Part shown: positions 1-22,918 of the stretch, one piece after another | Layout of the letters: each line of letters starts with the position of its first letter | Position numbering within the stretch: the stretch's first letter is position 1 | Position numbers and translations under genes: made by a program | The notes under the pieces: model-generated | Databases searched by the model: none | Told to the model about the DNA's origin: nothing | The model's input: the letters and a program-made list of their open reading frames with translations, nothing else | Assembly: GCA_008632985.1 (NCBI GenBank) | Contig: QPGO01000145.1 | Coordinates: forward strand, 186,001 to 208,918 | Origin: Psammoneis japonica | Lineage: Eukaryota | Direction: 5' to 3' | DNA length: 22,918 nt

Positions 1-1240
1 CCACCAGTGCACACCACATGCAAATGTGGGAGGGCACTCATTGTCCTTGAGTGCCTTGGCAAGTTTGGCTTTGCGGCGCTGTTGACTTTTTTTCTCTTGC
101 TTGAGCATTTGCAAAACACAAGCGCAAATCACACGTTTTGCCTGTGCGCTGCCTTTGTCCTTGCTGCCAGTCCAGTGATGAGGAAGGGCCAGTAGATTCT
201 CTTGGGCATTTCTTGCTGTTTTCATGGTCTCCCTCTTGTTTGAAGGTGCAGGAGCAAAAACAATGGCAGCAGCTGGGTTCTGCCAAAAGAAAGAGTTGAA
301 ATTGGGTCAGCTGATGAGTTGCACCACATGAAACTCATGTTGTCATTTTGACCACAATGAGAGCAATCAGAAAACAAGCAGTTTGAAGCAAGGTTTGCAT
401 GTGACAGGATTGGCCCTCCACAAGCAGCAACAATGTTGTCAACTTGCAACTCAGTTCAACTTGTGGTCAAGAATCTCCTCTCAGCATCATCCAAAGTGAG
501 CGACAGTCATGTGTTGCAATTGCAGAGCTTGCGCCACATCAAGGTTAATTGGGCTGTGAGAACTTGTCCCTGCATGTGTCCAGCACCTGCTCTGTGTGGC
601 AGCTTGCACTCTCTGACATGCTTGCAAACCCCCTTGGCTGTGTGTGAGTGGAGTTGCAGAAGGAGCGCCCATCTGTGCAAGGTTTCTAGCTGCACCTTTT
701 TTCTTCTGCTGTGTTCTCACTGTCAGTTGCTGCCAGCACCAGCCTGACCAAGTCTGTTCCCTCTGTCTGTTTGGTGGGCCATGCTCTTCAATCAGGCTGA
801 TGCTGGTGGTGACAACAGATGAGTGGCCCAGTGGAGAAAGTTCATAGAGTCATCAGACAGATGGGAAAAGTGGCTGAGTTCTCCTTTGCCAATCCCACAA
901 ATGACTGGGGGGAGAGTGACTGCTGGGCTTGTGGGACATGAAGCTGACTCTGAAGTTGCCAAACTCTGAAGTCTTTGACTGCTTTCAAAAACATCCAAGT
1001 GTGCTCTTGTCACATCTGAATCTTGGTGCAGAGGGGAGCCATTCTCCTTTTTTTGTGCACTTGCCAGAGAGCATTGCACTTCATGCTGGCTGTTCAAGTC
1101 CAAAGGCTGCTGCTCCTTCTTCTTCATTGTGGCAAAACAAGAAGTGTCACTCACAGTTTTTCCTTGTCTGTGCAACACCGCAAGTGAGACCACATGCCCC
1201 ATCTGCATGATCCTTGAACGGCTGCACTTCTTGATGGGAG
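1..1240. other. TpA/CpG-depleted, TpG/CpA-rich degenerate block (left, truncated by window edge)
   Basis: Only about 4 TpA counted in 1-1240 and few CpG. Normal TA/CG content resumes abruptly at ~1245 (ttctaggacatcgcccgtagggtgtagtagg). ORFs here are short, Cys/His-rich and Tyr-free. Confidence 0.85.
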
Positions 1241-1588
1241 ATTTCTAGGACATCGCCCGTAGGGTGTAGTAGGATGGTCCCCAAGGACACTCTACCGGAA
1301 ACGGCATCCGGAACACGGATGAAAATTATGGTAAATGCGCTAATGCGGTGGATTTCATGGTCATTGACATGGCGGCTGCCACCACTCCCATTATTTTTAC
1401 CATGAAACTGTGTCCCACTGCTTGCTTGGGAGGAAAAAGGTACAATATTGCTATAGTTGCCAGTTATTAAACGCTTGGTTCTTACAATGCTGCCACTAAC
1501 CACCTTTCTGAAGCGTGGACGACAAACGCACTGTAGTGCTTGTGTCTCTACCTTGCCTCTCTCTTGTAGTCTATGTCTGCGATACTGT

Positions 1589-2575
1589 CTAGTCGCTTTC
1601 GACTTTCTTTTCGGTTTCAACATTTACTGATAGCTTTTCTGCCATCGACTTTTCCACCTGGGCGACACCATTGTCAGAGTTGTCGGAAGTGGCATTATCG
1701 CCCTCTGCAACTGCATCATTTTTTGATTCTGTCTCTTGAAGATACCTTTCATACTGCTTGATCATCATATCGGCCCAATAGCGGGCAATCAATAAACGAA
1801 CGATTCGCCGGTCTCCTCTAAAGCTCGGTCCAGTCGCCGTGGCATCATCCGGATCGCGTTCTTGACCAGCATCCGCATCACCCGCTTGTTCCTCTTCGTC
1901 GTCGTCGTTGTTGGACGCAGAAGTCGACGGACCACGCTCTAACAGTTTGGGTCCTCCCAGTGTTTTCAATCGTTCCAGCCATACGGCAAGCACTTGTTCA
2001 TTTACGCTTCCGTCAGAATTTGCTATGTCCAGAGTAAAGCCTCCTCGTCGATCAAACAAGAGCGCTTCTTCAAAGTCCACCTCGGCTTTTCCTCGTGCGT
2101 CTGTTTTGTATTCCGTCATTTTAAACTTGGATACTTGCTCCACCACCGTGCACAACACTACCGCATAAGCCGAATGGATTCCATACTGTGAGTTGAGACG
2201 TTCTCTAATTCCAGATCGCGGCATTTGAAAAATCTTTCTCAGCACAACGCCGCCTTGCTGTCGACACCATTTCTCCAATGCTTCGCTGTGCTTTTCCCAA
2301 AATTCCTTGTACGTCTTCATTTCCTTTTTCATCTTGTATCGCAGCCGAACGCGATCACCCCACACCTGATCACGCATATCCGGTGGCCACGGGCTCTGTT
2401 GCAGGGCTGACACTTCGGCTTGAGCCGCGTCGGTTTCAAAGTCCGAAATCGAATTGATAAGACCCGTAATGCCGTCTGGATACAAATGTGGAAAGCCACA
2501 GCAGGCGCAAGATCCACCACTCACATACTCAAACATGGTCTTGTCCACCACCCAGTTGTCCTGAAAACGAGGCAT
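1589..2575 (-). CDS. Hypothetical protein, ~328 aa, apparently single exon (MPRFQDNWVVDK...KKVESD)
   Basis: Long ORF in normal-composition DNA with natural amino-acid usage including Tyr, an N-terminal CACCGFPH motif and acidic linkers. Start chosen at ATG 2575 because the upstream extension to 2728 runs into the repeat beginning at 2682. No family recognised. Confidence 0.8.
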   Translation of the reverse strand: MPRFQDNWVVDKTMFEYVSGGSCACCGFPHLYPDGITGLINSISDFETDAAQAEVSALQQSPWPPDMRDQVWGDRVRLRYKMKKEMKTYKEFWEKHSEALEKWCRQQGGVVLRKIFQMPRSGIRERLNSQYGIHSAYAVVLCTVVEQVSKFKMTEYKTDARGKAEVDFEEALLFDRRGGFTLDIANSDGSVNEQVLAVWLERLKTLGGPKLLERGPSTSASNNDDDEEEQAGDADAGQERDPDDATATGPSFRGDRRIVRLLIARYWADMMIKQYERYLQETESKNDAVAEGDNATSDNSDNGVAQVEKSMAEKLSVNVETEKKVESD

Positions 2576-2681
2576 GTTGTACAACAGTGCTTGACTTTCC
2601 TTCTTTTTTATGAACAGTGCACCTGCTACCACAATCAGAAAAAATTGCCAGTTACGAGTTAACGAGTGCTGCGTGGGTGAA

Positions 2682-5625
2682 CGGTGAATTGTGCTCAGCA
2701 CCCATTTCAACCACACCTGACCCCTCATCTATCATGAGCTTGTTGATGCCGAACAACAACAGAACAGGCTAACAGAATGCCAAACGTTTGTTTCTCGCCA
2801 CATCATTTACTTTGTAGCAGCAGCAACAACAGTAATTGGGTGTGGCAGAGGAGGCAGAAGAAGGAGGCTTGTCATTGAGGCCGAGTCGATTCCAAACTGC
2901 GCAAGGAAGGGCAGAGGCGCCGATGTGTGGGGTGGTGGTGAAGAAGCATCTCCAAAAGCGGGTTCACACAAGAGACCCCAGCAGAGCCCAACAAACAGGG
3001 AGACAGTGGCAACAGTGACATGGAAGATGATGTGACCAATGACCCCATGCTGATGCCCACTCGTGGATGCTGTGAGAGAGCCAGATTGGCGCAGCAGAGG
3101 TCTCTCACTGGGTGAGACCATGATCATCATGCCCACATGGGTGCTGTGAGAGCCAGGTTGGCACAGGTCTTGCTGGGTGAAGACAACAAAGACAACTGAG
3201 GGCATGCAGTGGGTGAGTCACCACATGCTAAGATGGCCTCACAATGACAGTTTTCCAGCTCCAAAACCTGCCTCACATTTGGGGCAGGAAACAGAGTTCG
3301 GAAAAGTTGACAACCCCAGCCAGAAGAGCCCACTCACAACCTGCCAAGCAGAGTTTTAGAGCTCTGGCTCAAAGCAACACAAGTGCCACTCTCTGATGAC
3401 AGGCATGACTCCTGTGCTGGTTGATGCAGGTGGCAGCAAGCAAGTGACTGGTGATTGGCCTTTCTGGCCACTGTGCAGGTTGGGACAAAAGTTGGAGAAC
3501 AAGGAGCAAGATTTGGGGGACATCTTCAGAAGTGAGACTGTAAAAGAAAGTCACATGGAATTTGTGCTAAAACAGTCTGTCAATCATTGCAATTGGGGCA
3601 TTTGGGAAAATGCTGGAAAGATCCTGCGTGTTTTCTTGTGTGCACAAATTGCACTGGGAAAACCCCCAAGTGCACTGGCAATCAGACCGCCTTTGACAAT
3701 CTCACTTCCAAAGATGCCCCCCAGATTGGAGCTTCAGAGGCAGCAGGCAAGGAGTTGGCAAAAGAAGTGGCATCTTGTCCCAAGAAAGCCAGCGCGAGAA
3801 TTTGGTTGTTGGTGTGCTGTGATGAAGCTGGAGATGTCCAAGGAGCATCTCCAAAAAATGCTCCCTCTTTTTCTTTCAGCTGTGGTGGCTTGCTGACCTT
3901 CTTCAGGAAAAGCCCAGGCAGACTTTGGCATGGGGAGTTTCTTGCTCTTTCCCAAGTGTGATGTTGAACCATCTGGCATGGATGGCATGGGCATCAGAGT
4001 TTTGAAAAACATGCTTGCTTGACAACTTGATTGTTCTAGCTTCCTTGACTTGGGTCCAATGCCGTGGCTCCATCTGGTGTCATTTGGATGGCTGGGAATG
4101 CCAGCATCCACGTGCAAAAATAAAGTCCGCATGATTGTGTTGCAAACAGTTTGATCAAGACTTTTGTCTGCTCTGCCATGAGTGTTGTCAAAGCAAAAGA
4201 CTTGCTTGTTGAAGAAGAATGCAGACAATGCCGAAATGTTGCCTGCTTGCTTGAGGCAACATCCAGAACTCAGAACTGCCCACGCATTCTGAACACATCA
4301 GCCATTCCAACGCATGCAATGGGCTTCTTAGATTCAACATGAACCCCCAGTTTTTCTACCCCATTCGAGTCTCGCAACTTCACAGCACCAGCACTGACAG
4401 CGGGAACAGGATGGACCGTGCAAAAGCATGTCTGCAATTTTTGCTGCAGGAAGGAAACCCCAACTTCGACTCTAGACTGTTGCAAGTTCACAGGATCAAC
4501 GACCAGGAGGAATGTGAGCTTGTCGAGAGGAGGCAAAATCGTTCCGAGTCCACGTCAATGGTGATGCACTGAGCTGTGGTGAAAGGGGCGTGTGTTCTTG
4601 AATGTCTTCATTGGCGGGGGGCAAAGAAGAGACTTCAATCACAACAATGTCCTTTTCTGCTGGGAGTGGATTTTTAAACTCTGCATCATGAGGATTCACC
4701 AAGTGCACCCCGACAACACCCAATTGGAGAATCGATTCCGGAAGTTTGATGAGTGCGCAATGTTTGTCCGTCGGTGAATTTGTCGACACCAACAGAGCGC
4801 ATTGAGCAGTGCCAACGATGGTGTTCTTTGCTCCACCAAAATGGTCAAACCATGTGTGTGTTGCTTGTTTGTTGGGGTCATGCAAGTTGTGATTGTTGGC
4901 ACCAATCACGGGAACTTCACAAATTAGATTCGATGACAGAGGATCAGCAGCAAGCTGCAGATCCATCACTGCCGCTTCGATTTGGTTGACGGACTCAACC
5001 ATCCATTGTTCAAACCATGTCATTGGCTTGTTGTGTGGAATTGTCGGCATGTTCATTGCTGTGGCAGCCAGCTGCCGTTGATGAAGACTGCAGAAAAGAG
5101 TGATGCAGGGATCATAGAAACTTGAGGTTTTGAGGTTCTCAGAAGAGAGGCAGTGTGCATTCTTGTGCAAGAGATTCAAGCTGGTTGCGGAGCAAACGAC
5201 TCCATGCTACAGTGTCGTGCATTGACAGAGCTGCCTTGAAGGCTTTGTTGGACAACGTCGTGGCAATGATCAGAGCATGATGAAAGATGGAAATTGCAAC
5301 ACGGCCATGCGGCGTTCTCTTCAAGTCTTGAGTCTGTGCAAGACTGTGACCTGTGAAATGCGCTTGTCAGTTTTCGCACACAAGTTTGCTTCATGGCAAT
5401 TTTGTGCATCTGCACCACATAATTTACAGCGACATGCGTCTTGCTGCTTTCCGACTCTCGCCTGTGACCTCCGTCCGACAAAAACACGGTGAAGCACGGG
5501 AATGCATCCAACAATGGCGGTGCCAATCATCATTGATTCTGCCATTTTTCACCATTCTCCCATGTTTCAGTGAGCTCTTGATGGCAATGAAAGAGGGCTT
5601 TGGTGCTTGCATTGTTTCTGTTGGC
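2682..5625. repeat. Repeat copy A (long form) of a locally duplicated degenerate element
   Basis: 2682-3883 aligns with 6061-6947 (with gaps) and 5365-5625 aligns with 6945-7223, e.g. tgtgctcagcacccatttcaac and aagcacgggaatgcatc..acaatggcggtgccaat occur in both. Confidence 0.85.
4270..5179 (-). pseudogene. Decayed coding sequence of unknown family inside repeat copy A
   Basis: Overlapping minus-strand ORFs 4496-5179 (227 aa) and 4270-4536 read as protein-like (WFEQWMVESVNQIEAAVMDLQL, DIVVIEVSSLPP, LLVVDPVNLQQSRVEVGVSFLQ) but are frameshifted and nearly Tyr-free. No domain recognised. Confidence 0.4.
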
Positions 5626-6060
5626 ACCACCCATCTGCCAAGGGGGGCACCCGCTGTTTGCTGCAAAGACTTTGAACAATGGTGTCAATGGCTGAACTGA
5701 TCAAACTCAGAGGAAACCCACAAATTCAGACATGATCCAGTGTGGGATGAGATGATTCTTTCATGCTTTCAAACAATTCAAGGATTGACTGGAGACAATG
5801 TGAAGGAAATCAACAAATGTTGTGCAAGACTGTGTGCAGAGGCCTCTGGTGCAACACTGGACCAAAAAGGAAAGTGCCATCCCAGCAAGCAGCGCAACCT
5901 GTGCTGTTGCCACCAATCTTGACAGGAATGCTGTCAATGATGGCATTTTCAAGAAGATGCCAGAGAGAAAACACTCAAAATCTCTTGCACAGCCACCCCG
6001 TAAACCCACATGCCGGGTGGACACAGCGGTCAGATTGCCGGTGTCATTTTTCAAGTTGAT

Positions 6061-7223
6061 CGGTGAGTTGTGCTCAGCACCCATTTCAACTGCACATCAT
6101 GAGCTTGTTGATGCTGAACAACAACAGAGCAGGCCAACAGAATGCCAAACGTTTGTTTCTCATCACATCATTCACTTTGCAGCAACAACAGCAATTGGGT
6201 GTGGCAGAGGAGGCAGAAGGAGGAGGCTTGTCATTGAGGCCAAGTCTTCCAAGCTGCATGGGATCGCGGCTAAAAGAAGCATTTCCAAAAGCGGGTTTTG
6301 CACAAGAGGCCCCAGAAGAGGCCAAGGAACAGGGAGACAGTGGCAACAGTGACACAGAAGATGATGTGGCCAATGACGACCATGATGATGCCCACTCATG
6401 GATGCTGTGAGAGCCAGGTTGGTGCAGGTCTTCTTGCTGGGGTGAGACCATGATGATGCCCAAATGGGTGCTGTGAGAGCCAGGTTGGCACAGGTCTTGC
6501 TGAGTGAAGACAACAAAGACTGCTGAGTGCCTGCAGTTGGTGAGTCACCACATGCCAAGATGGCCTGACAATGACAGTTTCCCAGCTCCAAAAACTCACT
6601 TGTGGCAGGAGCCAGAATTCAGAAAAGTTGACAACCCCAGCCATTGAGGTGCCCGCTCACCTGCCAAGCAGAGTTTGAGAGCTCTTTTTCAAAGCAACAG
6701 AAATGCCACTCTCTGTTGACAGACACAGCTTCTGTGCTGGTCATTGCAGGCAGTGACGGGCAAAAAGTTGGAGAACAAGGAAGCAAGATTGGAGCTTCAA
6801 AGGCACCAGCAGGCAAAGAGTTTGCGAAAGAAGTGGCACCTTGTTCCCAGAAAGCCAGCTTGGGAATTTGGTTGTTGGTGTGTTGTGAAGAAGCCAGGGA
6901 TGTCCAAGGGGCATTTCCAAAACAAATGCACCCTTTTTTTCAGCTGTCAGTTTTCACACACAAAATGTGCTGCCTCCATTTGCGTTGTTGCAATTTTGCA
7001 GTGCCAGCATCATGTGCAGCAGAAATTTGCAGCATTGAGTCTTGCTGCTTTTGAACTGCCGCCTCCAACATCCAACAAAAAAACATGGCAAAGCACGGGA
7101 ATGCATCTGACAATGGCGGTGCCAATTGTCATTGATTTTGCCACTTTCATCACTCTCTCATGTTTCAGCGAGCTTCCAATGGCAATGAGACAGAGCTTTG
7201 GTGCTTGCATTGTTTCCTTTGGC
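6061..7223. repeat. Repeat copy B (internally deleted form of copy A), same orientation
   Basis: Collinear with copy A but lacks ~214 bp (A 3509-3722) and ~1.48 kb (A 3884-5367). Confidence 0.85.
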
Positions 7224-7557
7224 TGCACTTTCACTCACATTTTTTTCTCTGTCTGTGCCATTTTGACATTCCAGCAGGCATGTCACACAGTGTGTTTGCT
7301 TTTGTAGAGTGCCGTTGCAGCTCAAGTTGTCTTTCATCAACCAAAGCTCATGAAAGTGGTTCAAACATTGAACATTTGATGGTGTTGCAGTGTGGACATT
7401 CAAGGTGATGGGAGGGTCACAAATGGCTTGCACTCAAGAGAAATTGAGCTCACAACATTTGTCTCTCTCATGAGTTGGATTTTGAACCAGGTGTTGCAGC
7501 CCATTGAGTGAAATGTTGCACGACAGACATGCCAGAAGGCAGAGTTGAATGTGAGCA

Positions 7558-9423
7558 ATGAAGAGATTGAATTTGTGGTGCACAGAAGGGCAACATCAAC
7601 TTCTGTCTGTTGGCAAAGGGAGTGACTTGAATGGAGTGACTTGCTCTCAACTTGTGCCAATGCTGGCACAAAGCAAAGAAGAGAGCAGAAGCTTGGACAC
7701 AATTTCAAAGGAACTGCATGTGAGAATGAAGGCAGCATTGTTGAATGATCAACCAGAATGCTCACCATTGACAGATGAATGACATCCACTCAGCCATTGC
7801 TGTGCTTCATCCTGCAACTCCTTGTTGTCAAACAAAGTGTTGGCTTGGGCAAAGCGCCGGGCATTCTAAATGACTGAGTTGATTGTTCAAGCAATGAGAC
7901 AGCTGCAGCAAATCCACAAGATGCCAGTGTCAACAAATTGGCTTTTGATGGCTGCACACCTTTCCAAGAAAAGCACAAGCATGGCAGCACAGCACCTGTT
8001 CCAACAAGAAGTGCTGTTGGCACTGATGCTTGCTGTGGCATGCCTGGCTCAACAGATGACCAATCCTCCACCAGCAGCAAAAAAGATGTCAAAGCAAATG
8101 GGGGCTGGGTGTCATGATGTGAAAGCCAATTGCAAGAAGGCTGGTGACCAGGAGAGTGGGAGTCAATCATTTGAACTTTGGAAAAGGAAGAAACAGAGTG
8201 ACCACATCATCAAGTTCTGCCAACACTCAAAAGAAGGACTCAGAGTTGGTGCTGAGTCAAACAGGGTTTGCAAAGTTGAGGATCTGGCAACAGGGACATT
8301 TTTTATTCACCCAGCTAGAGTGTGGAGCAGTGCAACTCTTGAGAGTCAACGCAATGCACCCAAACAACCAGGCATCTGCAAGATGTGTTTGCCCGTGCAC
8401 CAAGGGCCCGTCTGAGCATGTTTCTGTGTGGATTTTCCAAAAACTGGGCCAGAAGAGCCCATGAGTGAGCTGAACAAAGCACTGGCCAACAATCCAGTCA
8501 TGTGGGAAAAAGCAAAAAAGAACTGCCCTTGTGGTTGTGTGTTAGAGTTTTTTGACTTTGTTTTGTGGCAAGGAAGCATCAGTTGGTGGAGAGCCAAGCC
8601 ACAGTTTTGAGTGCCACAAGCAAACAAAAGATGCTTCTTGTGTTGCTTAGAACTGACCAAATGACTTGCTGTGTTTGGACAGCATCATTTCAGCTTCAGC
8701 ATTTGTGTGGGTTCTGCATGCCACAACCGCAACTTGTTGAGGCTCAAAACCTGTCCAAGTGCTGTTGTGAAACTTTGGCATGCTTGTTCAACTTGATTTG
8801 TTGTGGTTCAATCAGTTGCAAGCACAAAACTTTTGTGCACATTCCATGAGAACTTTCCCGACATCTGCCATGACACATGCTTTTTGCAAGTTGTTGAAAC
8901 AATGACAACACACAACAGCTCAAAACTTCAAGCTTTTGCAAAAACTTGTTGCCCCATCATGACTGATCTCCTCACCTTGTCCGCAAAACAAACATGGCAT
9001 CCACAAGAGCACTGGAACAAATTGCCCACATGTGTCCCTGGCACATCATCTGTCTGCATTCTCTGACAATCCATGAGGTGACTGGGTGTGCAAAGTGTGT
9101 GTGCATTGGCTGACACACAGACTCATGACAGAGAGCAAAATGACACCGCAGACTGCACAGGTGGAGTAAGCAGGAAAGTTAAAACAGACAGTTTTGACCA
9201 CAGGCACCAGCACAAAAAAATCTGCATGAAGAAACAAAACATCTGTAAAGATGAAGAAGATCTTGAAAACATTGAACTCTGCAAAAATCCTCCAAGCAAG
9301 TCAAAAATGCTGTTTCAACCATGGCACATTTTTGACACGGCAAGCACACCTTGCAGAGATCCAATTGTTGAGGCATCAACTTCGTTGAACAAAAACAATG
9401 CACAGTTGTGTTCACATTTTTAG
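7558..9423 (+). pseudogene. Possible decayed coding sequence of unknown family
   Basis: A chain of plus-strand ORF fragments (7558-7782, 7870-8415, 8428-8610, 8803-9066, 9088-9423) with charged, protein-like stretches (ESRSLDTISKELHVRMKAALLND, RVCKVEDLATGTFFI). No motif identified, and ORF length is inflated by loss of TAA/TAG. Confidence 0.3.
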
Positions 9424-9471
9424 CTGTTTGTTTGTTTTTGGTGCTGTGGAGGTTGCTTTGTCATTGACAAA

Positions 9472-13110: not shown

Positions 13111-13302
13111 TCAAGTCGTTGGATGAAAATGGTTTAAAAATGCCAGGTTCGGGAGTTGGGCAAAATACAATCTAGAGCTAGTCGCACCGGCGCAGGCTTT
13201 CAAGCTTTTCGCTACTCATACTTGTCATCAGGACTTACTTAATTATGTACATGAAAAAGATAACACCTCCATTGAAACAGAAAATTCTTACAGCAGAGTC
13301 CT

Positions 13303-14669: not shown

Positions 14670-14962
14670 TCTGGATTCTTTCAAGGCGCGGCTAAAAGAC
14701 GAAGGTTAAGCGTCTTTGCGATAATGCAGTGAACCTCTTGTTTGTGCCTTTCTTCACACTTACTGTACAACGCCAACATTCTTTGCGGCTTCGACAGAGT
14801 GCTGAAGTTGAAATTGCCCCCTGCGCGGCGCGACTTGGCTTCAACTATCCTGCCCGCCGCCATCGCCATTGTTTTCTTGCTCGCGCTTACTGTATTTTCT
14901 CTCACGCACAGGCGCGAGCATGCGTTGAATTTTTAATTCTAGTTAATTCAGTACTGTAGAAG

Positions 14963-14970
14963 TATAAAAG
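14963..14970 (+). promoter_or_regulatory. TATA-like box (TATAAAAG) in the 483-bp divergent intergenic region
   Basis: Consensus match ~185 bp upstream of ATG 15153 in an AT-rich spacer between divergent genes. Motif only. Confidence 0.25.
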
Positions 14971-15152
14971 GAGACTTATGTGTATGGATGATTACGGTAT
15001 CAATATCGTGCAATTAATTTCTATTGCCTGACTATTGCCCTCGCAAAATCGCTCATCACCATCATCAGATTGAAGATGCGACATCACACATCACGCTTCA
15101 ATCGGCTTGAACTTCTCTCATAAACTCCAAAGGAACGAGAGGCAACAACACG

Positions 15153-17051
15153 ATGGCGTTGCAAGCTCGACATTGTAGCAGGGATTTCGCTAGTGCATCG
15201 GATTATTTAGACGATGATTGGGTTAATCTGAATAACACACGCTTTCTTGGTGGAGCAACTACGAGAAGTCGCCAAGCTCGAGATGATTCCGCTGACGACA
15301 TTCTGTTTGGAACCACAAGCGCATCAATGAGCACCGTTGAGAGCATAGAAGACACGACATCGCCAGCGATTGTATCAGATGATGAAGATAGTGGGTGGGT
15401 GGACGAGCTTTATCAGAGTAACGGCTCCCGACGTCCTACGCGGCACCGCGCTCCTTCAGAGAACTATTCAACCGTGGCCAGAAACGTCTCTCCCATAGCA
15501 GAGCATCAAGAGCAAGAGAGAATCGTGCTTGGAACGAGCGTCACCATCTTTGGAAGCAGCAAGCACTCTGGAAAGATTGGCACCTTTGTCAAATTTACAG
15601 AGAAGAGAGTTTGTGTGCAACTCGATGTCGGATCGCGGTACTTTGCGTTCAAGAATGTACGAACCGCAGACGGTCAAGCTGTTGTGCCACCTCAAGACCG
15701 CATGGCACGTATGACAACAGTGGTTGGTCATGAGAACAACTCGGTTGCTACGAATGATTCAAGACCTCCCGTCCAAGCCAGGGTCAGGATTGTTGGTGCC
15801 ACCCATCGAAACAAGACCGGTATTGTAATTAAGAACACCGAACATCGGGTCTGCGTTCAATTGGAACCAGAAATGATTCAACGATACTTTGCTCCGAAAA
15901 ATGTGCAAGTACTTGCCACTCCAAGCAATGAAGAATCTACTCGTGAACATACTGGAAATACGAGCACAATTCGAGCTGCTGTGCCACCTCATGACCGCAT
16001 CGCGCGTACTACAACTGCTGCTGCTCAAGACGAGAGTAACTCGGCTGCTACGAATGATTCACGACCTCCTGTCCAAGCTAGGGTCAGGATTGTTGGTGTC
16101 ACCCATCGAAACAAGACCGGTGTTGTAATTAAGAACACCGAACACCGGGTCTGTGTTCAATTGGAACCAGAAATGATTCAGCGATACTTTGCTCCGAAAA
16201 ATGTACAAATACTGGCCCCTCCAAGTAGTGAAGAATCTACTCGTGAAGATACTGGAAATATGAGCACAAGCAGTCGTCGGTACTCGTCTCCAAGCACCAC
16301 CGCTCCTCAGCCTCATGCAAGGCGCTCCACTTTGTCAACGACGTTGGCACCAAGAATCACCATCTCCTCCCGCCAACCTCGGAGTGTTTTATCATCAAAC
16401 CAGAACCATCACTTTCAGCTAGAGCCTACTAGTAGGCGCCCTGTTGTCATCACCAACGAGACAAGGACGAGGAATCGTCCGTCCTCGTCGACAAGCAGTG
16501 CCACTCCTCCAGTGGCGGTCATAGAAGAAGCACAGACAAGCCGATCAATCCGTCCATTGACTGCTTCTGCAACAAGAACCACCCCTCCTTCAATCGACGC
16601 GCCGAGGGTTCCCTCGTCAAGCCCAAACAATCGTTTTGATGCGGGACCTCCTGCGCAACGAAGGCAACAGTCATTTAGAAGAATTCCTGTCACCATGAGC
16701 GCCGAGAGAGTTTCGCCACCCACGTTTGCCCAGTCAAACTTGACCCGCGATATTCTTGCTGCATAAGGTGGCTTTTCTACTTTTCAACAACATGCGTTCA
16801 TGGCACGCTCTCAAGACCGCGCTCGCATTGTGGCGGATCGCGAGAGACGCATCCAAGAACTTCCCGTAGCAGTCATTGATGATCCAACGAAGTTGCCACA
16901 CAATCATCGGTCGTGTGCCGTTTGTCTCTGCACCTATAGCGCTGGAGATGAGCGACGAATGTTGCCGTGTTTTCATGGCTTTCATCGTTCCTGTGTCGAC
17001 CAATGGTTGCGAAGAAGCACGCAATGCCCCACTTGCCGGCAACACATTTAG
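15153..17051 (+). CDS. Protein with three KOW-like motifs and a C-terminal RING-H2 finger (putative E3 ubiquitin ligase), interrupted by in-frame TAA at 16764-16766
   Basis: KOW-like: GTSVTIFGSSKHSGKIGTFVKFTEKRVCVQL and 2x ARVRIVG.THRNKTG.VIKNTEHRVCVQLE. RING-H2: CAVC..LPCFHGFHRSCVDQWL..QCPTC. The 33 nt after the TAA keep the frame (GGFSTFQQHAF-MARSQ). Confidence 0.75.
15678..16269 (+). repeat. In-frame ~300 bp (100 aa) tandem duplication duplicating one KOW-like module
   Basis: 15781-15969 matches 16081-16269 at an offset of exactly 300, with looser similarity back to 15678/15975. Confidence 0.95.
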
Positions 17052-17610
17052 GTTACTATACAGAAAAAAGTCAGGGCTGCAAGAGGAGTTGGCGGATGTT
17101 CTTTTCCAAATATAGTTTCTCCCTTGTTGGCATCGAGTGTCCTCGGTCCTCTCCACAAAGCCTTTCTCGCAGTTGACTCCTGCTCTTGTTTCCTTCTTTT
17201 CGGTTTCTTCTAAAGAGCGCAATTTTGCGCACGGAAAAACGAACAAGATAGAGCTAAGTCACATGAATTACCATTAAGCAGTGCATAATCATGTGAAAGG
17301 CAGTGAACTTGTCGCTCTAGACTCTACAATACTCTATGGTGGCTTAGAAGTAAGTGTCCCGGGATGATCCCATGTCTGGGGGGTCGCGTCCGTCAGTTGA
17401 CCGTACGACTCTTCTGTCCTTCGTACGAGAGGTGTCATGCCCCTCGTCCCTCTGAAAAAAAAACGAGAAACGAAAACGGCCGCAACAGGCAATGACGAAC
17501 GCACATTCTTGCACATTGGGTGTTTCTCTATCTCGACTCTCTGTGTCTCTCTCTCTCCCTCTGCTTGAAACCCGTTCATCTTACGCTATTCTGATTCTGC
17601 TTAGGCTGCG

Positions 17611-18926
17611 ATGAAGCGTAGTCTAAGACGCTGTCTCTGTGTGACTGTTGTTGCAGCCGGATTGTTGTTGGTGCCAACCTTGGCATTTTCCTCGACTCGT
17701 GTCAACTTGCAGCAAAAACAACGCTTGGCTTCACCACATCATGTTGTGCGGAGGGCCAAACAAAAGAGTTCTTTTTGTATTCAAAAGGCGTCGGCTGTTT
17801 CCATGGAACCATCATCAGCCGAGAATCGCAGCATGAACGGTCTGATTGGCAAGCTCAAGTCAACTATTGTCAAGGTACGCATAGTAAGCGAGAACATGCG
17901 CACATCGTCGTGTAAGAATCTAATCTGATACTCACGACATGCGGATCGTTCTTTATTTATAATCAGGTTGGGATGATTGCTTTTATTGCCGGAATGTGTG
18001 TTTCACTTCCAATCACGTTGTTTCCCATTGAAGCTTTGCACCGCTTTAGATTGATCTCCAGGTTGCAACGAGAACGACTTAGTCTTAGAATGGGAACGTT
18101 TTGCGCTCGTTGGATGTTACGATTGTTTCCCTTTGTAAGATTGGATGTAAAGACAACGTCCTCGAAAGACCTTGAGCAACCAAGTGTATGGGTGTGCAAT
18201 CATCAATCCATGTTGGATGTGTTCATCATGTTGGCGGCAGACAAAAAGATGAGAGGCAAAAACAAACGGCCCATTAAGATTGTTTATGTAAGAAAAACAC
18301 GAATCATTGGTCCATATCACTGCAATACATTCTCCGATTGATGCGGGTATTCTCACATTTGTTGGTATTGCTTCTTTCAAACACAGTGGAAGGGACTGGA
18401 AGACAATCCCATTACAAACCTATTATTCACGCAGTGCGGTTTCATTTCAGTCGATATGGCTCCCAACAAGCCGGGAGAAGAAAATAAGTACGATCGAAAG
18501 TCCTTCAAGGCACTGTTGCAATCGACAAAGCAAGCCTTTGAGGAGGGTTTCGATGTTGGTTTGCTACCGGAAGGCCAGCCCAATCCGACGCCGGAAAAGG
18601 GACTCTTGCCGGTCTTTTCGGGAGCCTTTACGCTTGCCAAAATGAGTCGTCGACCCATTCAGCTCATGGCGCTGTGGGGAGCAAATCATGTATGGCATCC
18701 TCATGATGGACTCAAGGAGGCGAAGCCTACCGGACGACACGTCAAGGTTCGAGTGTACGGGAGCAGGGCGTTTGAGACGAGCCAAGAATTTGTAGAAACA
18801 TTCTCTACCATTGTAGGGTACTTTGGAAAGACTGGGTATGATTTGCCACGTTGGAAACAATGGATGGATGGGACGGAATGGAAGAAAAGGAATCTGAAAA
18901 CAGACGTTGCCGCTTCAGATGAGTGA
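17611..18926 (+). CDS. Plastid-targeted 1-acyl-sn-glycerol-3-phosphate acyltransferase (LPAAT, PlsC family), 3 exons: 17611-17874, 17967-18287, 18387-18926 (~374 aa)
   Basis: Catalytic NHQSMLD (NHxxxxD) and LPEG motifs. Two phase-0 GT-AG introns (17875-17966 gtacgc..tcag; 18288-18386 gtaaga..acag) join the frames. Signal peptide ending TLA|FSS followed by a basic Ser-rich transit peptide. Confidence 0.92.
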
Positions 18927-18943
18927 AACGCAGTTGTCAGGAA

Positions 18944-18960
18944 AGAGAGAGAGAGAGAGA
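18944..18960. repeat. (AG)8 microsatellite in the 3' region between convergent genes
   Basis: agagagagagagagaga seen directly. Confidence 0.8.
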
Positions 18961-19105
18961 TGCGTTCCGGTAATGATTCTGGAACAAGATATCTGCGAGC
19001 TAGAGACTATTCATACCGCGCTAGTAAATGGCAACAATTGTGTCTGTAAGTTGCGAAGGACATTCACAGTTTTCATAAAAAAAAAAGCACGAGGTCATAC
19101 TTTTG

Positions 19106-20072
19106 CTATGATACAAACTTCTTTCCGTATTCAAATGCAATGAAACCTATTGCACTTGGAATAAATGCTAGTATGGTTGGTCGAAGAGCTGGACCTGCCA
19201 CAGCGAGTCGCCTCGTGCGCTTCCCATTTGTTCTGTATGGTTCAGACAGCCCAAGTAGCTGCTCGGTGTAGTGACTGGCGACATGCTGTGCTTGACCTGC
19301 CAACCCACCGGCAATCCCAAAGCTCACAAGATACTCTCCACCGTAAAAATGTTCCACAGTGTCATGTTCCAACAAGACACGCTTCATGCCCTCATAAGTC
19401 CCAAACAACAGTGAATGTGCGACGGCATGGTGAGCCGTCATGTTTGGCAGTGATCGCAGCATGTTCTTTTTGGATCCTTTTACTTCTATCGCGGTCGAAG
19501 CTACTCCATGGACTATTCCAGCTACCGCACCGGCAGTAAAGTGAGACCCCAACGACGCTCGTGCGAACTCGTCTTCTTGGTCAAGTTCAACGTGTATCCG
19601 CCCATCATCGTCCTCCACCTCCACGTGACGTTTTGTTGCAGTTGCTTCCAACGGAGCTAATTTGTATATGATATATCCATAAGTTTCAAAGACTGCAGCT
19701 CCCAGCAACGTATTCTTTAAGAGTGCTATAAAAACGGTGAAGTAAGTAATTGATTACCGGGTAGAAGAACGAACTCAAAACACTCTTACATGTCGCAAAG
19801 GCCGCCACTCGTTTTGACAATGATTTGACTGTTGTTCGCTCTGCCGTTTCTACAGCCGTTTGAAACCAATCGAGACCTGTCGAAAGACGATCCGAGACTC
19901 GCGCTACTTGCCGCACTGGCAAACGTCGTTTGAAAATGGCTCGTCGAGGCAAAGATCCAATGGGAATGCGAGCAATGGATCGTCCTAAGCTTCGAGCCAA
20001 TCCGCGTACAAATCCGGCAGCTTCGGCAGATGCATTGTGCCTACTTTCATCGTCACTACTACTTGAGCTCAT
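19106..20072 (-). CDS. Divergent mitochondrial-carrier-like membrane protein, 2 exons: 20072-19790, 19725-19106 (~300 aa)
   Basis: A 64-nt phase-1 intron 19789-19726 (gtaaga..ttatag) joins AFAT-S-LLKNTLLGAAVFETY. Carrier-like helices: HFTAGAVAGIVHG, SLLFGTYEGMKRVL, GIAGGLAG, AFIPSAIGFIAFEYGK. The canonical PxD/ExxK/R signature is not evident. Confidence 0.7.
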
Positions 20073-20082
20073 GAAATGCTCT

Positions 20083-20164
20083 CTACTAGGGCCCTAGTAG
20101 CTATCGGTATGAGAAACAACCCCAGTCGTATCAATGTTAGTTGCTCAACACCGGTAGCTACTAG
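20083..20164. repeat. Perfect 18-bp palindrome (20083-20100) overlapping an imperfect inverted repeat (20094-20113 / 20144-20164)
   Basis: ctactagggccctagtag is self-complementary. ctagtagctatcggtatgag pairs with ctcaacaccggtagctactag. Confidence 0.8.
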
Positions 20165-20506
20165 CTGTGGCACGCATCGGCGTTGTGCTGAGTTCACCGC
20201 AGTGCTGATGATGTGCGAATGCATTTTCCAGTTTAGGCTAATGGACTAGCCCAAAATTGTGGGACGACGCACGACGACGACTCTTCTTTGAAAGAGCCAT
20301 GCAAAGAACAAGTGCGGCAGTGTGGTGTGTCATTGGTGGGAATGTCCGGCACAGAAAACTGACAAGCTCTGATGTTGAACGTGTGGAGCTTTTGATTCTC
20401 TCGTTTCTGTGGTGGGAGGTGCTCTCAGTGCCGCGGCCGCTCCATGTGCCGATTTCTTTGTGGCGGGAGATGGGAGAGAGCATCGCCGGAAATGAAGGAG
20501 GAAGGC

Positions 20507-20902
20507 ATGTCTTCTTCATCTGATGCACCTTATTTTTGTGTCATCTGGAAAGAGGGCACTGATGCATCACATTGCCTTGGCACCATTGGTGGTGGCACCA
20601 TGTTCTGCCTCAAAAGGGGCACCAAGTGCAAGGTCAAGCATGAGGGGCCCAAAAGAAGGATCTCTTGCCGCCCCAACGGCATGCCGGCCATCCTCAAGTT
20701 GCTGGACACGGGGTTCTGTCAACCCATTTTAGATGGACATTTCACACTTGCCATTGCATTGGTCAAGTGGGAAGCTGCCGCTGACACTTTGGCTGGATGG
20801 TGTGCCAGAAGCTCCTGGCACTGGGAAACAGTGAGTCCCAGTGCCCTGCTGAGGACAAGTGCAGAGCATCTCTCAAGCAGCACAAGGAGGCTGTGGGGTT
20901 GA
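20507..20902 (+). mobile_element. Truncated transposon ORF1/gag-like fragment with a Cys/His knuckle-like motif
   Basis: HCLGTIGGGTMFCLKRGTKCKVKH followed by FCQPILD..W..TLAGW. From memory this resembles N-termini of repetitive diatom retroelement-associated ORFs (possibly the tyrosine-recombinase/DIRS class). No RT or recombinase is visible in the window. Confidence 0.4.
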
Positions 20903-21609
20903 AGAACCCCACAAGGTCCAATGCAGCCTCTGACATCCCCAGCTTTCCTGGGGCTCTGTTTGGTTGGCACTCCCCTTGCCTTCGGGTTGTCACTGCTGCT
21001 CCCACCCAGTTCTTGGTGTGGCCGACAAGTCCCCATCAGCATTGGCCCGGGTGGCTCAGTCTGCAGAAACAAATTTGGTGCACATTGAACCTGTTGCTCT
21101 CTCTCCTTCCTCCTCCTCCTTTTCTTCTTTTTTTCATGAATGGGTCATGGGACTTTGAAAAAGTGGGCGCACAGATTTCCAGCCCATCCGCCCAAAATCA
21201 ATTGCTGGCCAACAATCGCACAGCGCACCTTCTGGTGCTTTTCCAATGATGAGCACACAAATTCAAAAATCATCAATGGCAAAAATGCCGTTCATCTCTG
21301 CAGTGCTTGTTTCTAAAACAATTGTCTCAACACCGCTGAACCCCCTGTCACATGAATCACATGCATGACTTGTGGCACTGTGGCAAGAAAACAAAGTGTG
21401 TTGGGTTGCAGTTGTGCATCTTGTGGTGCACTGTCATGTTTTGGTGTTTTTGGGGTGCTGTTTGCCTGCCCTTGTCTTGCTCACAGTTGTTTGTTTCATC
21501 TCATGTTCTGGAGCAAGGTGATGGTGCTCTGTCATTTGCATCATTGATGCTTTGCGAGTGACATGGTTGAGCTTTGGATTGTGGGATCAACCTTGATGAT
21601 TGGTGTGGC

Positions 21610-22405
21610 TGACATCAATCTGGGGTGCATCAGAAGCCGGAAGCTGCCTTTGTGTCAATTGTGCACAACAGCTGGACTTCTTGAAAGTCAACAAAAACAC
21701 CTGGACTGGCTTGCATGCAACAATTTTGGCTGATGTTGTGTGTCTGGTTCATTTGGAAACATGTCTTCACAGTTGAGCATTGTCAATCTTGTGCTCATCC
21801 TTGTTGTTGGGGACTTGGGCATGCCAAAACCGCCAATGCATCATTTGTGTACAATGACTGGACTTGGAAATCAACAAAAACACCTGGGTTTGCTTTGCTG
21901 CAACAATGCTGGGTCATTGTTGTGTGCTCAATTTGTTTGGTCATGCATCCTTGGAGCTGAGCGTGATCAATCTTGCGCTCATCCTTGTTGCTGGGCATGC
22001 TGGGACCGCTTTTGTGTTGTTTGCACACAACATCTGGACTGGAAACTTGACAAACACTGTGCCTGGATTGGCTTTTGTGCAACTCTCACTGGTCATCATT
22101 GCACGTCTCATTTCATTTGCTTTGTGTGCCTTTGTGTGAGCGTGGTCAATCTGGTGCTCATCCTTGTTTTGGGGGTGCTGGGTGCTGGGGGGCCGCTTTT
22201 GCATCATTTGCACATGATGTCTGGACTGGGAACTCAACAAATGACACACCTGGATTGACTTTTGTGCAACTCTCACTGGCCATTGTTGCACGTTTTATTT
22301 TTTATTTTTTGTCTTAACGTGAGCATGACCAATCTGGTGCTCATCCTCCTCATTGCTCATTGTTGGGGGTGCTGGGACCGCTTTTGCGCCATTTGTGCAT
22401 GACAG
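21610..22405. repeat. Diverged tandem repeat, ~180 bp unit, about 4.5 copies
   Basis: Unit starts gagc.tg..caatct.g.gctcatcct at 21775, 21959, 22138 and 22321 (spacing 184, 179, 183), plus a more diverged copy from ~21610. Confidence 0.85.
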
Positions 22406-22918
22406 GCAAGGGGGCACTTCCATTGCCCAAATTTGTTCTTCTGCATGGGAGAGTGTCATCAATGTGCAACTTTGTCAATGTTGCTTGACTGCTTCTTTTG
22501 AACAGTGCACCAACTTCACTCTGCATTTTCACTCCAAAATCCGCCCCATGCCCCACCCTCTCCCACTCAAAAACACTTGGCTGATCGCATTGCAGTTGCA
22601 TTGGAAAGTCTTTAAAAATGTTTGACAGAAATTGAAGGCAAATGGCAAGAATTCAAACAATGGCTCCTTGCTGCTGTCTAAACAGCAGATGAGTCTCCGC
22701 TCAGAGACCGTCACAGGAGCCAAAAGACGTGCAAGTCGGCACAATCGGGCTGCTGTCATTGTTCTTGTGAGCCTTGTGGCTCGAAAGCAAACTGCATCGC
22801 GTGCGAACGCACGGAGCCAAAGCACACAAAACTGTGCGCGGCAAACTAAACAGCGCGCGACATTTCGCGCGCACCCAAATCCTGTTCAAATCCTGTCACT
22901 CCCCAGTTTGCTTGAGGA

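Follow-up and report, generated by a model that had tools for sequence, protein, structure and literature searches.

Flank-dependent loss of TpA, separable from CpG loss, in repeat-bearing domains of diatom nuclear DNA

Introduction

The closest described counterpart of the DNA analyzed here is found in Bigelowiella natans, where, of the 302 single-nucleotide mutations that arose de novo in mutation-accumulation lines, 231 lay in two integrated viral regions, and 230 of these 231 were A-to-G or T-to-C changes, all stated to fall on TpA (Mettrop et al., bioRxiv 10.64898/2026.01.13.699255, 2026). The preprint also describes 124 clusters depleted in TpA and enriched in CpA and TpG, and its authors put forward a DNA adenine deaminase resembling ADAT2. 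The words "CpG", "context", "flank" and "trinucleotide" do not occur in its main text, which mentions no diatom, and its supplementary list of mutated sites may contain flank information. The window studied here, a 22,918-nt stretch of Psammoneis japonica contig QPGO01000145.1, resembles B. natans in that A:T-to-G:C change occurs only at TpA and yields TpG or CpA according to strand, in discrete regions beside normal DNA. Long-term clustered TpA depletion with CpA and TpG enrichment, silent or foreign-looking targets and the proposal of an adenine deaminase are also common to both. However, B. natans is a chlorarachniophyte (rhizarian) and the diatom a stramenopile, and the depletion is far deeper in the diatom (TA O/E 0.05 vs a Rho of 0.45 in the NCLDV region). 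Furthermore, the diatom window shows coincident CpG loss, a defined flank rule and no recognizable viral or transposon domain, and its signature is read from sequence alone, whereas de novo events were seen in B. natans.

A second comparison is RIP of filamentous fungi, with which the diatom blocks share a hypermutation by transitions that affects repeated, silent DNA domain by domain, a dinucleotide preference, sharp borders beside genes and independent mutation of paralogues. RIP changes C to T chiefly at CpA, creating TpA and destroying CpA/TpG, and the RIP-like mutation of basidiomycetes reportedly targets TCG. The direction in the diatom is opposite, because its blocks destroy TpA and create CpA/TpG, and their composition shows no drift toward AT. 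C-to-T mutation of repeats is the described action of RIP (PMC7296669), and RIP-like mutation has been reported for basidiomycetes (PMC3318451). Cytosine methylation is present on transposable elements of the diatoms studied, and DNMT4 enzymes, which are related to fungal RID, occur in many diatoms (PMC9998398).

Results

The window is diatom nuclear DNA. Block borders were set from TA and CG maps, giving depleted blocks at 1-1240, 2840-13130 and 20250-22918 (14,200 bp) and, for comparison, normal parts at 1241-2839 and 13131-20249 (8,718 bp). Block A (1-1240) is nearly devoid of TpA and CpG (O/E 0.03-0.10 and 0.09-0.18, respectively, in 500-bp windows), with TpG/CpA at about twofold. The adjacent island of normal composition (1241-2839; TA O/E 0.36-0.57, CG as high as 1.23) consists of a minus-strand ORF of 379 codons at 1589-2728, which matched no Pfam family, and its untranslated flanks (1241-1588 and 2729-2839), in which TA and CG are retained. 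The second normal part (13131-20249) is a gene cluster that includes a spliced acyltransferase gene (PF01553), the best named relatives of which, at 50-65% identity, all come from diatoms; introns at 17873-17964 and 18288-18386 appear as GT..AG skips in X2 contigs. Within both gene islands, TA and CG are normal in introns, UTR-like flanks and spacers. Block B (2840-13130; 10.3 kb) is repeat-bearing, with word depth peaks of 1158 and 327 (vs about 60) at 3336-4002 and 5337-6003, and block C (20250-22918) contains a tandem repeat of about 184 bp (21655-22402). When 38 ORFs were scanned against Pfam, those in block B gave no family above the cut-off, and none of the blocks yielded a protein domain of viral or transposon type; thus, targeting of foreign DNA as in B. 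natans would be conjectural for this window. The layout is best explained as expressed-looking gene islands of normal composition interspersed with repeat-bearing hypermutated domains.

Among the 16 dinucleotides, only TA (O/E 0.05 in blocks vs 0.56 in normal parts) and CG (0.24 vs 0.96) drop in the blocks and TG and CA alone increase (1.8 vs 1.2), while the remaining 12 shift by at most 0.17 and base composition is the same in blocks and normal parts. TG and CA each reach O/E 1.5-2.4 in all 500-bp block windows. YR steps number 3,450 in the 14,200 bp of blocks (243/kb) and 2,133 in the 8,718 bp of normal parts (245/kb), and about 1,084 TA and CG are missing from the blocks against about 1,060 TG and CA gained. 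Because YR-step density is constant and loss approximately equals gain, the changes are transitions only. In contigs of run X1, word depth was about 58-62 across depleted and normal parts alike; a piece of 2,489 nt over 10833-13321 agreed with the window except for 13 letters, and one of 648 nt over 6473-7120 agreed without exception. Differences between X1 contigs and the window comprised 127 transitions and 27 transversions, with adjacent CA/TG swaps among them. Since independent contigs at about 60x carry the same block letters, the depletion is not an assembly artefact. In other diatoms, TA O/E fell below 0.2 in just 1 of 1,462 500-bp windows, and comparable depleted domains were absent from these 80 environmental loci (395 kb), which are gene-rich contigs and may simply lack repeats. 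As both these loci and the introns, flanks and spacers of the gene islands are normal, the depletion is restricted to domains and is not a genome-wide bias.

Paralogues inside the blocks date the process. A segment at 2678-3873, of which the first ~160 bp lie in normal DNA, is duplicated in the same (plus) orientation at 6057-6941, entirely within block B, with about 80% identity. Their alignment contains three sites at which a TA of the normal part is matched by CA in the depleted copy, as well as TG-versus-CA steps where both copies are depleted. A plus-strand tandem duplication of about 765 bp in block B (9472-10988; 88% identity) shows 7 CA-versus-TG, 11 CG-versus-TG/CA and 4 TA-versus-TG/CA steps. 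Block paralogues were aligned over 1,668 positions, at which transitions numbered 141 and transversions 52; CA stood against TG at 21 steps, and TA never stood against CG. The CA-versus-TG steps between copies, together with the pairs of normal TA and depleted CA, indicate that the mutations postdate the duplications. The depletion is therefore real, of mutational origin and later than the duplications.

A manual tally in the earlier note had put the residual TpA at about 28 YTAR, about 18 mixed (RTAR/YTAY) and 1 RTAY; counting the 47 sites in the depleted blocks of this single window confirmed the tally with 27, 19 and 1, the sole RTAY being GTAC at 21849-21852 (TA at 21850). The YTAR survivors were TTAA (8), TTAG (8), CTAA (7) and CTAG (4). 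Five baselines were either close to 1:2:1, the ratio expected in the earlier note without a context effect, or richer in RTAY than in YTAR. The normal parts gave 65/174/91 for YTAR/mixed/RTAY (n = 330), which differed from the blocks with chi-square p = 1.4e-8 (Fisher p = 2.7e-8 for YTAR vs RTAY), and 21,747 TpA in the 80 environmental diatom loci (395 kb) gave.173/.518/.309 (p = 3e-13). Within the blocks, the first-order Markov expectation was.313/.493/.194, TG and CA steps gave about.24/.52/.24, and TAs newly made by context-free substitution of block sequence gave.24-.27/.51-.58/.19-.25 (rejected at p <= 4.4e-6). The surviving TAs are not copies of each other, since their positions do not correspond between the internal repeats.

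A model with separate rates for TAR and TAY half-sites predicted 28.0/17.0/2.0, close to the observed 27/19/1, in agreement with the proposal of flank-dependent loss by independent hits on each strand. Assuming that the blocks once had the tetranucleotide content of the gene islands or of other diatom DNA, per-strand survival was 0.51 for TAR and 0.12 for TAY (TAY/TAR rate ratio 3.2; LRT p = 1e-10), and an estimated 80% of converted TAs in the Y-TA-Y orientation became TG (bootstrap CI 53-108%; the value was 50% or less in 1.3% of resamples). TG arises when the A of TAY is the base that is hit, so that this bias agrees with the independent-strand model. TAC and TAT were equally lost, so that a tRNA-like U-A-C-G context was not specifically recovered. 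No deaminase gene was found in the window.

Although the loss is flank-dependent as the earlier note had it, its preference for TAY over TAR described the rule incompletely, because the base at +2 after the A counts as much as the purine or pyrimidine at +1. The +2 base was A at 54 of the 94 half-sites that survived, against 180 of the 660 half-sites used for comparison, and a three-class model outperformed the purine/pyrimidine model (p = 6e-8 to 6e-9). In survivors vs comparison half-sites, TAAA (28 vs 45) and TAGA (19 vs 50) were retained, TAAG stood at 7 vs 38, and TAGG (0 vs 22) and TAGT (1 vs 42) were lost as TAY is. Under the above assumption, fitted per-strand survival was about 0.93-1.1 for TA-R-A, 0.29 for TA-R-[C/G/T] and 0.11-0.12 for TA-Y. 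Relative to the purine/pyrimidine skeleton, which is invariant, TA survival fell from 0.55 through 0.41, 0.18, 0.065 and 0.022 to 0.006 between sites with two TA-R-A and sites with two TA-Y half-sites, whereas CG survival across these flank classes was flat (0.18-0.28). Thus, TA-R-A is almost immune and TA-Y is lost fastest. In terms of tracts, purines and pyrimidines alternate in RTAY, and in TYTARA a run of pyrimidines meets a run of purines.

The counterpart count at NCGN, suggested in the earlier note as a check for a shared flank preference, gave CpG a different rule with no purine/pyrimidine effect: relative survival was 0.16 for TCG, 0.22 for ACG, 0.31 for GCG and 0.33 for CCG (TCG vs SCG, p = 1e-5). 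The two losses also differ in extent. Four edge fringes (792 bp) hold 2 TA vs 30.0 expected and 47 CG vs 44.1 expected, namely 2840-2960 (TA 0, CG 6 in 121 bp, a normal CpG density), 12925-13130 (TA 1, CG 6 in 206 bp), 20250-20490 (TA 0, CG 16 in 241 bp) and 22695-22918 (TA 1, CG 19 in 224 bp), the last of which is a fringe or the start of the next normal part, as the window ends there. In the sub-block 4400-5600, TA is lost but most CpG is kept (0.15 and 0.67 of normal density, respectively), compared with 0.08 and 0.15 elsewhere in the blocks. As the fringes lack TA but keep CpG, CpG loss needs a second determinant, and TA loss is separable from CG loss. Decay of 5-methylcytosine and the basidiomycete TCG mutation likewise turn CpG into TpG/CpA in repeat-bearing silent DNA, and TCG is the most depleted in the diatom blocks; however, CpG decay alone leaves TpA untouched, and methylation of these blocks is presumptive.

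Discussion

We favor, with a probability of about 0.68, a strand-symmetric, transition-only hypermutation that reads flanking bases, is restricted to repeat-bearing domains of diatom nuclear DNA and is separate from the CpG loss. The main process converts TpA to TpG or CpA, through A:T-to-G:C change where A follows T in either strand, which is the signature that arose de novo in B. natans, and the surviving TpAs would be sites slow to be hit. On each strand, TA-R-A is nearly immune, TA-R-[C/G/T] intermediate and TA-Y fastest, and independence of the two strands leaves YTAR far above mixed sites and these far above RTAY. The activity would read T, A and the next two bases, about four bases in all, as a nucleic-acid-modifying enzyme would, and a DNA adenine deaminase appears to be the most economical candidate; a defence function is conceivable. 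CpG loss, with its other flank rule and its end short of the TA-loss borders, would most simply reflect cytosine methylation followed by deamination. Amphioxus ADAT2 acting on DNA in E. coli prefers 5'-GAA, not 5'-TA, for adenine, which speaks against this explanation (PMC10354150).

A single bifunctional ADAT2/TadA-like deaminase with 5'-T preference might act on A in T-A and on C in T-C-G, CpG loss being a slower or methylation-dependent side activity. It would account for the common domains of the two losses and for the greatest loss of CpG with 5' T, and precedents exist in amphioxus ADAT2, which deaminates both of these bases in DNA with 5'-TCG as its favored context for C, and in ABE-type TadA domains, which prefer 5'-TCN for C (PMC10354150). 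We nevertheless regard it as unlikely, because no fixed rate ratio under one exposure produces the fringes and the sub-block 4400-5600, and because the purine/pyrimidine and +2 A rules of TA have no counterpart at CG. Moreover, C is lost only at CpG, whereas a TC-directed enzyme should also deplete TCA, TCC and TCT, and TC O/E moves just from 1.12 to 0.95. Somewhat less probable still is an attack on T in 5'-R-T-A, for example methyl oxidation leading to mispairing with G and T-to-C change. Oxidized thymine is mutagenic, and since A-to-G on one strand is T-to-C on the other, all counts fit equally and the sequence does not distinguish the attacked base; T and 5-methyl-C would also both be 5-methylpyrimidines 5' of a purine in the two lost palindromic steps. 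However, the T of TpG is not lost, no result here favors thymine over adenine deamination, and the B. natans authors favor the latter (bioRxiv 10.64898/2026.01.13.699255).

The gradient from alternating RTAY (survival 0.006) to the tract junction TYTARA (0.55) would suit local DNA mechanics or repair efficiency in place of enzyme recognition. This is improbable, as the +2 effect is specific to A and not purine-wide (TAAG and TAGG against TAAA and TAGA), CG survival is flat across these flank classes, and the YTAY product asymmetry points to per-strand reading of the 3' base. Finally, the residual TAs might have arisen anew or been kept by selection for a function, or the whole pattern might be an artefact that modified bases caused in sequencing or assembly. 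Many residual TAs do stand next to A-runs or T-runs, where a transversion origin is possible, but this reading is already largely refuted and we give it very little weight: the context-free expectation for new TAs was rejected, 5 of 15 plus-strand TAAA sites (a list read by eye) have a 5' T and are not derivable from an A-run without an earlier TA, the independent contigs carry the same TG/CA letters, and no function is known for 47 scattered non-coding sites.

The favored flank-reading hypermutation shares with TadA, ADAT2-ADAT3 and derived DNA editors an absolute requirement for T(U) 5' of the target A, as in U33-A34 of tRNA. The natural context of TadA is U-A-C-G, whereas the diatom blocks lose TAC and TAT alike and their strongest signal is the immunity of TA-R-A. 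ADAR hyperediting of dsRNA and retroelements also leaves A-to-G clusters with a 5' U preference, but as RNA-level editing it marks only a single strand of a retro-copy with A-to-G, while in the blocks TG and CA are both raised in every window and the same site can read TG in one copy but CA in its paralogue. Furthermore, ADAR favors a 3' G, whereas TAG is among the better survivors in the diatom blocks.

Depleted blocks and normal parts

From base composition in 500-bp and 200-bp bins, the window was divided into five parts: three depleted blocks, A (1-1240), B (2840-13130), and C (20250-22918), in which TpA is almost absent and CpG mostly lost, and two normal parts of ordinary composition (1241-2839 and 13131-20249). 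Judged from the positions of TA and CG, the borders between them are sharp, within tens of bases. The observed/expected (O/E) ratios of TA and CG were 0.05 and 0.24 in the blocks (14,200 bp in total) versus 0.56 and 0.96 in the normal parts (8,718 bp), whereas TG and CA rose to 1.8 from 1.2. The remaining 12 of the 16 dinucleotides shifted by 0.17 at most, base composition was equal, and TA was the only NA dinucleotide to be depleted, with AA, GA, and CA kept. YR steps were equally frequent, with 3,450 in the blocks (243/kb) and 2,133 in the normal parts (245/kb), and the approximately 1,084 TA and CG lost from the blocks were balanced by approximately 1,060 TG and CA gained. The changes in the blocks are transitions only, within YR steps.

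The contigs of X1, a public sequencing run, concur with the window, which rules out miscalled modified bases in a single assembly as the cause. Their word depth was about 58-62 over depleted and normal parts alike, and they matched the block sequence across kilobases with few or zero differences. A genome-wide neutral mutation bias was rejected since the introns, UTR-like flanks, and synonymous sites of the adjoining genes retain TA and CG; the same retention led us to reject selection against UpA and CpG in RNA. Within the gene islands, as we call the normal parts, TA and CG were unaffected in two introns, untranslated flanks, and spacers.

When paralogues inside the blocks were compared at 1,668 aligned positions, 141 of the differences were transitions and 52 were transversions. 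CA in one paralogue stood against TG in the other at 21 steps, and TA stood against CG at none. Adjacent transitions, at the transition rate of the same paralogues, are estimated to yield no more than one or two of these CA/TG steps by chance; the 21 steps mean that an ancestral TA or CG was struck independently in each copy. The mutations are younger than the duplications inside the blocks. One paralogue extends about 160 bp into normal DNA, and there the depleted copy has CA opposite its TAs, although this pair has only three aligned TA sites and hence no statistical power for the fate of TA. ADAR-type RNA hyperediting fixed by retro-copying would leave A-to-G changes on one strand of an element; it was rejected because TG and CA are both enriched in every block window and because, at the 21 steps, a single ancestral site had gone to TG in one of the copies but to CA in its partner.

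Between the window and the X1 contigs we counted 127 transitions and 27 transversions; CG/TG and CG/CA pairs were frequent, and adjacent CA/TG swaps against near-identical contigs occurred at 419-420, 600-601, 4075-4078, 7256-7257, and 9211-9212. The swaps suggest independent mutation of alleles, strains, or very similar copies, and the differences as a whole hint at recent hypermutation activity.

Flanking sequence of the residual TpA

The blocks retain 47 TpA, which were sorted by flanks into YTAR (27), mixed (RTAR or YTAY; 19), and RTAY, the only example of which is GTAC at 21850 in block C. This recount lies close to the hand tally of about 28/18/1 in the earlier note, and the skew is far beyond chance even in so small a sample (47 sites in a single window, as for all survivor statistics below). 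The 330 TpA of the normal parts were distributed 65/174/91 over YTAR, mixed, and RTAY (p = 1.4e-8 against 27/19/1). Within the blocks, a first-order Markov expectation gave.31/.49/.19, and the TG and CA steps lay in flanks of the three types at about.24/.52/.24. As a further baseline, and for this purpose only, we used 80 environmental diatom loci from metagenomes (395 kb), which surround relatives of the acyltransferase encoded in the window; their 21,747 TpA gave.17/.52/.31 (p = 3e-13 against 27/19/1). Every baseline built was thus approximately 1:2:1 or had more RTAY than YTAR. None of these 80 loci contained a depleted domain: TA O/E fell below 0.2 in one of 1,462 windows, where CG was normal.

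If the residual TAs were new mutations arising regardless of context, the three classes would be expected at.24-.27/.51-.58/.19-.25, and all eight models of this kind were rejected (p ≤ 4.4e-6). Numerous residual TAs abut runs of A or T. Inspected by eye, the 15 TAAA sites on the plus strand include five that are preceded by T, and these five could not have originated from an A-run without an earlier TA. A removal rate that depends on the flanks is needed both for a completed process and for one at equilibrium.

Since TA is self-complementary, every site can be divided into two half-sites, one on either strand, which we read as T-A-(+1)-(+2). At +1, the 94 half-sites of the survivors had A, G, C, and T in 44, 29, 12, and 9 cases, versus 143, 161, 187, and 169 among 660 half-sites in normal DNA (p = 2e-8). 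Position +2 was A in 54 of 94 versus 180 of 660 (p = 8e-8), and among the 94 no effect was seen at +3 or further out. A model with independent strands and two rates, one for TAR and one for TAY, put survival per strand at 0.51 for TAR and 0.12 for TAY, which corresponds to a 3.2-fold difference in rate, and its expected classes of 28.0/17.0/2.0 were close to those found. This fit, together with the products described below, supports the earlier proposal that the two strands are struck separately and TAY more quickly than TAR. However, purine or pyrimidine at +1 is not the full rule, as TA followed by R-A escapes. Adding +2 improved the model at p = 6e-8 with normal DNA of the window as prior and at p = 6e-9 with environmental diatom DNA. 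The fitted per-strand survival was 0.93-1.1 for TA-R-A, which is almost immune, 0.29 for TA-R-[C/G/T], and 0.11-0.12 for TA-Y; these estimates reach as far as 47 sites in one window and an assumed ancestral composition of the blocks. Thus TAAA (28 in blocks versus 45 in normal DNA) and TAGA (19 versus 50) survive, whereas TAGG (0 versus 22), TAGT (1 versus 42), TATC (0 versus 44), TATA (0 versus 28), and TACG (1 versus 35) are lost; TAC (12 versus 187) and TAT (9 versus 169) survive equally poorly.

Because transitions leave the purine/pyrimidine skeleton intact, the flank classes of YR steps are conserved, and survival can be normalized without guessing past context frequencies. Normalized in this way, TA survival fell from two TA-R-A half-sites to two TA-Y half-sites through 0.55, 0.41, 0.18, 0.065, 0.022, and 0.006. 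The per-strand model also predicts that Y-TA-Y turns mainly into Y-TG-Y. Taking CG conversions as evenly split and the initial YR composition of the blocks as that of the normal parts, we estimated 197 conversions of Y-TA-Y to TG and 50 to CA, a TG share of 0.80 (0.53-1.08 by bootstrap over 250-bp chunks, with 1.3% of resamples at or below 0.5). Under these assumptions on composition, the asymmetry of the products agrees with the rate ratio obtained from the survivors.

Loss of CpG

The NCGN contexts, whose comparison with NTAN had been suggested in the earlier note, showed a different flank preference, in which the 5' base matters and the purine/pyrimidine class does not. Residual CpG fell into the corresponding R/Y classes at 38/106/52 of 196 in the blocks versus 111/262/112 of 485 in normal DNA (p = 0.48, no effect), and skeleton-normalized CG survival stayed at 0.18-0.28 across all R/Y flank classes, where that of TA falls steeply. 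By 5' base, relative survival was 0.16 for TCG, 0.22 for ACG, 0.31 for GCG, and 0.33 for CCG (TCG versus G/C-CG, p = 1e-5). The two losses also differ in extent. Four fringes at the block edges (2840-2960, 12925-13130, 20250-20490, and 22695-22918; 792 bp together) contained 2 TA against 30.0 expected but 47 CG against 44.1 expected, and TA loss exceeds CpG loss by 120-240 bp at each inner border. Likewise, 4400-5600 kept 67% of CG density and 15% of TA, compared with 15% and 8% for the remaining block sequence.

A single exposure in which the two rates stand in constant proportion cannot account for the fringes and 4400-5600. These results suggest that TpA loss and CpG loss are separable and that CpG loss requires an added determinant, which would most simply be cytosine methylation over a slightly smaller domain. 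Decay of 5-methylcytosine may account for the CpG loss seen here (O/E 0.24), provided that the blocks are methylated. According to a study of diatom methylation, cytosines are methylated in transposable elements of the diatoms examined, and DNMT4 enzymes, which are related to fungal RID, are encoded by many diatoms (PMC9998398).

Comparison with known hypermutation systems

Fungal RIP converts C to T at CpA (or other CpN) and leaves an excess of TpA and a deficit of CpA/TpG. The shift in the blocks is the opposite (TpA 0.05, CpA/TpG 1.8), and RIP itself was rejected. A closer parallel is found in mutation-accumulation lines of Bigelowiella natans, in which 231 of 302 new single-nucleotide mutations were located in two integrated viral regions, and 230 of the 231 were A-to-G or T-to-C changes, stated to be all on TpA (Mettrop et al., bioRxiv 10.64898/2026.01.13.699255). 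In these regions mutation was about 1000-fold faster than elsewhere in the genome, in some lines only, and the authors proposed an ADAT2-like DNA adenine deaminase as the agent (bioRxiv 10.64898/2026.01.13.699255). On TpA depletion, this 2026 preprint was the only directly relevant paper that our literature search found; the search returned no report of TpA hypermutation in diatoms or of domains depleted jointly in TpA and CpG. The main text of the preprint does not contain the words 'CpG', 'context', 'flank', 'trinucleotide', or 'diatom', and its supplementary tables may record flanks.

The hypermutation in the window apparently belongs with the TpA hypermutation newly described in this chlorarachniophyte. 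Both consist of A:T-to-G:C transitions that are limited to TpA and yield TpG or CpA, and both occupy discrete regions next to ordinary DNA. In B. natans the mutations were observed de novo, whereas here they are read from standing sequence; the targets there are integrated viral DNA, whereas the blocks hold repeats and none of the 38 ORFs scanned from them reaches a Pfam cut-off. The window suggests that the TpA process also acts, far more thoroughly, in a diatom, where a separable CpG loss accompanies it and where it follows a defined four-base reading frame: T-A, then not R-A.

The most economical explanation of this frame would be a putative enzyme that reads the T-A-(+1)-(+2) context, the attacked base being A or T. 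The TadA/ADAT2 type of target, an A after T as in U33-A34, matches the loss of TA alone among NA dinucleotides. The anticodon-like 3' context of TadA (A-C-G) does not match, as TAC equals TAT in survival and TATC and TAGG are fully lost. Amphioxus ADAT2 deaminates both A and C in DNA, A preferably in 5'-GAA and C preferably in 5'-TCG, and ABE-type TadA domains prefer 5'-TCN for C, according to one report (PMC10354150). The TCG bias of CpG loss in the blocks resembles this preference for C, but the adenine preference does not, GA and AA being unchanged in O/E. The window contains no deaminase gene.

To our knowledge, no enzyme has been identified in nature whose dedicated role is the mutation of genomic adenine. 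We give a probability of roughly one in four to the reading that diatoms have a RIP-like genome defence, in which a sequence-reading DNA adenine deaminase strikes 5'-T-A unless R-A comes next and wipes TpA from silenced repeats, beside or within a 5'-T-biased deamination of CpG cytosine. On this reading the system would be old in the SAR supergroup, since a rhizarian alga bears the same TpA signature, and the flank rule would be a fingerprint for identifying the enzyme. The rule is concrete and falsifiable, and could also be used as the read-out in assays of candidate deaminases.

Contents of the blocks and gene islands

The blocks contain internal duplications and two segments of high-copy repeats, 3336-4002 and 5337-6003, with summed X1 contig depths of 1158 and 327, respectively, versus about 60 elsewhere. 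In the consensus of the loose ends after 3607, positions that are TG in the window read TA and CG in other copies, showing that less-mutated copies are present elsewhere in the genome. Block C includes about four copies of a tandem repeat of about 184 bp (21655-22402; 62-83% alike), whose divergence lies largely at CG/TG/CA positions. Self-comparison after purine/pyrimidine collapse revealed no added paralogy; the gene at 1589-2728 and the stretch 4400-5600, for instance, did not match each other.

As TAA and TAG are gone from the blocks, ORFs of 100-236 codons are open there in all six frames; the stop-to-stop list for the whole window has 67 ORFs of at least 100 codons. A Pfam scan of the 38 block ORFs of at least 100 codons gave none above the family cut-off; weak matches to PsbX, PT repeat, and Fer4_18 were all far below it, and 4496-5206 on the minus strand had no usable Atlas match. 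Gene callers would over-predict in such domains, where long ORFs are spurious.

Long ORFs lie in the normal parts, as does a spliced acyltransferase gene, the named relatives of which are diatom proteins throughout (50-65% identity). The DNA is therefore that of a diatom, one lacking a close sequenced relative in the collection compared. Inside the acyltransferase gene, contigs of the second sequencing run, X2, skip 17873-17964 (92 bases) and 18288-18386 (99 bases), both with GT..AG ends; given these cDNA-like skips, X2, labelled 'DNA?', may be a transcriptome. Its contigs lie on the normal parts only, and their lack over the blocks is no evidence of silence. A plus-strand ORF of 551 codons (15111-16766) had no homologue among 8,000 candidates scored in a word-indexed search. 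It is rich in serine/threonine and proline and has an internal coding repeat of 300 bp (15674-15969 and 15971-16269, 88%).
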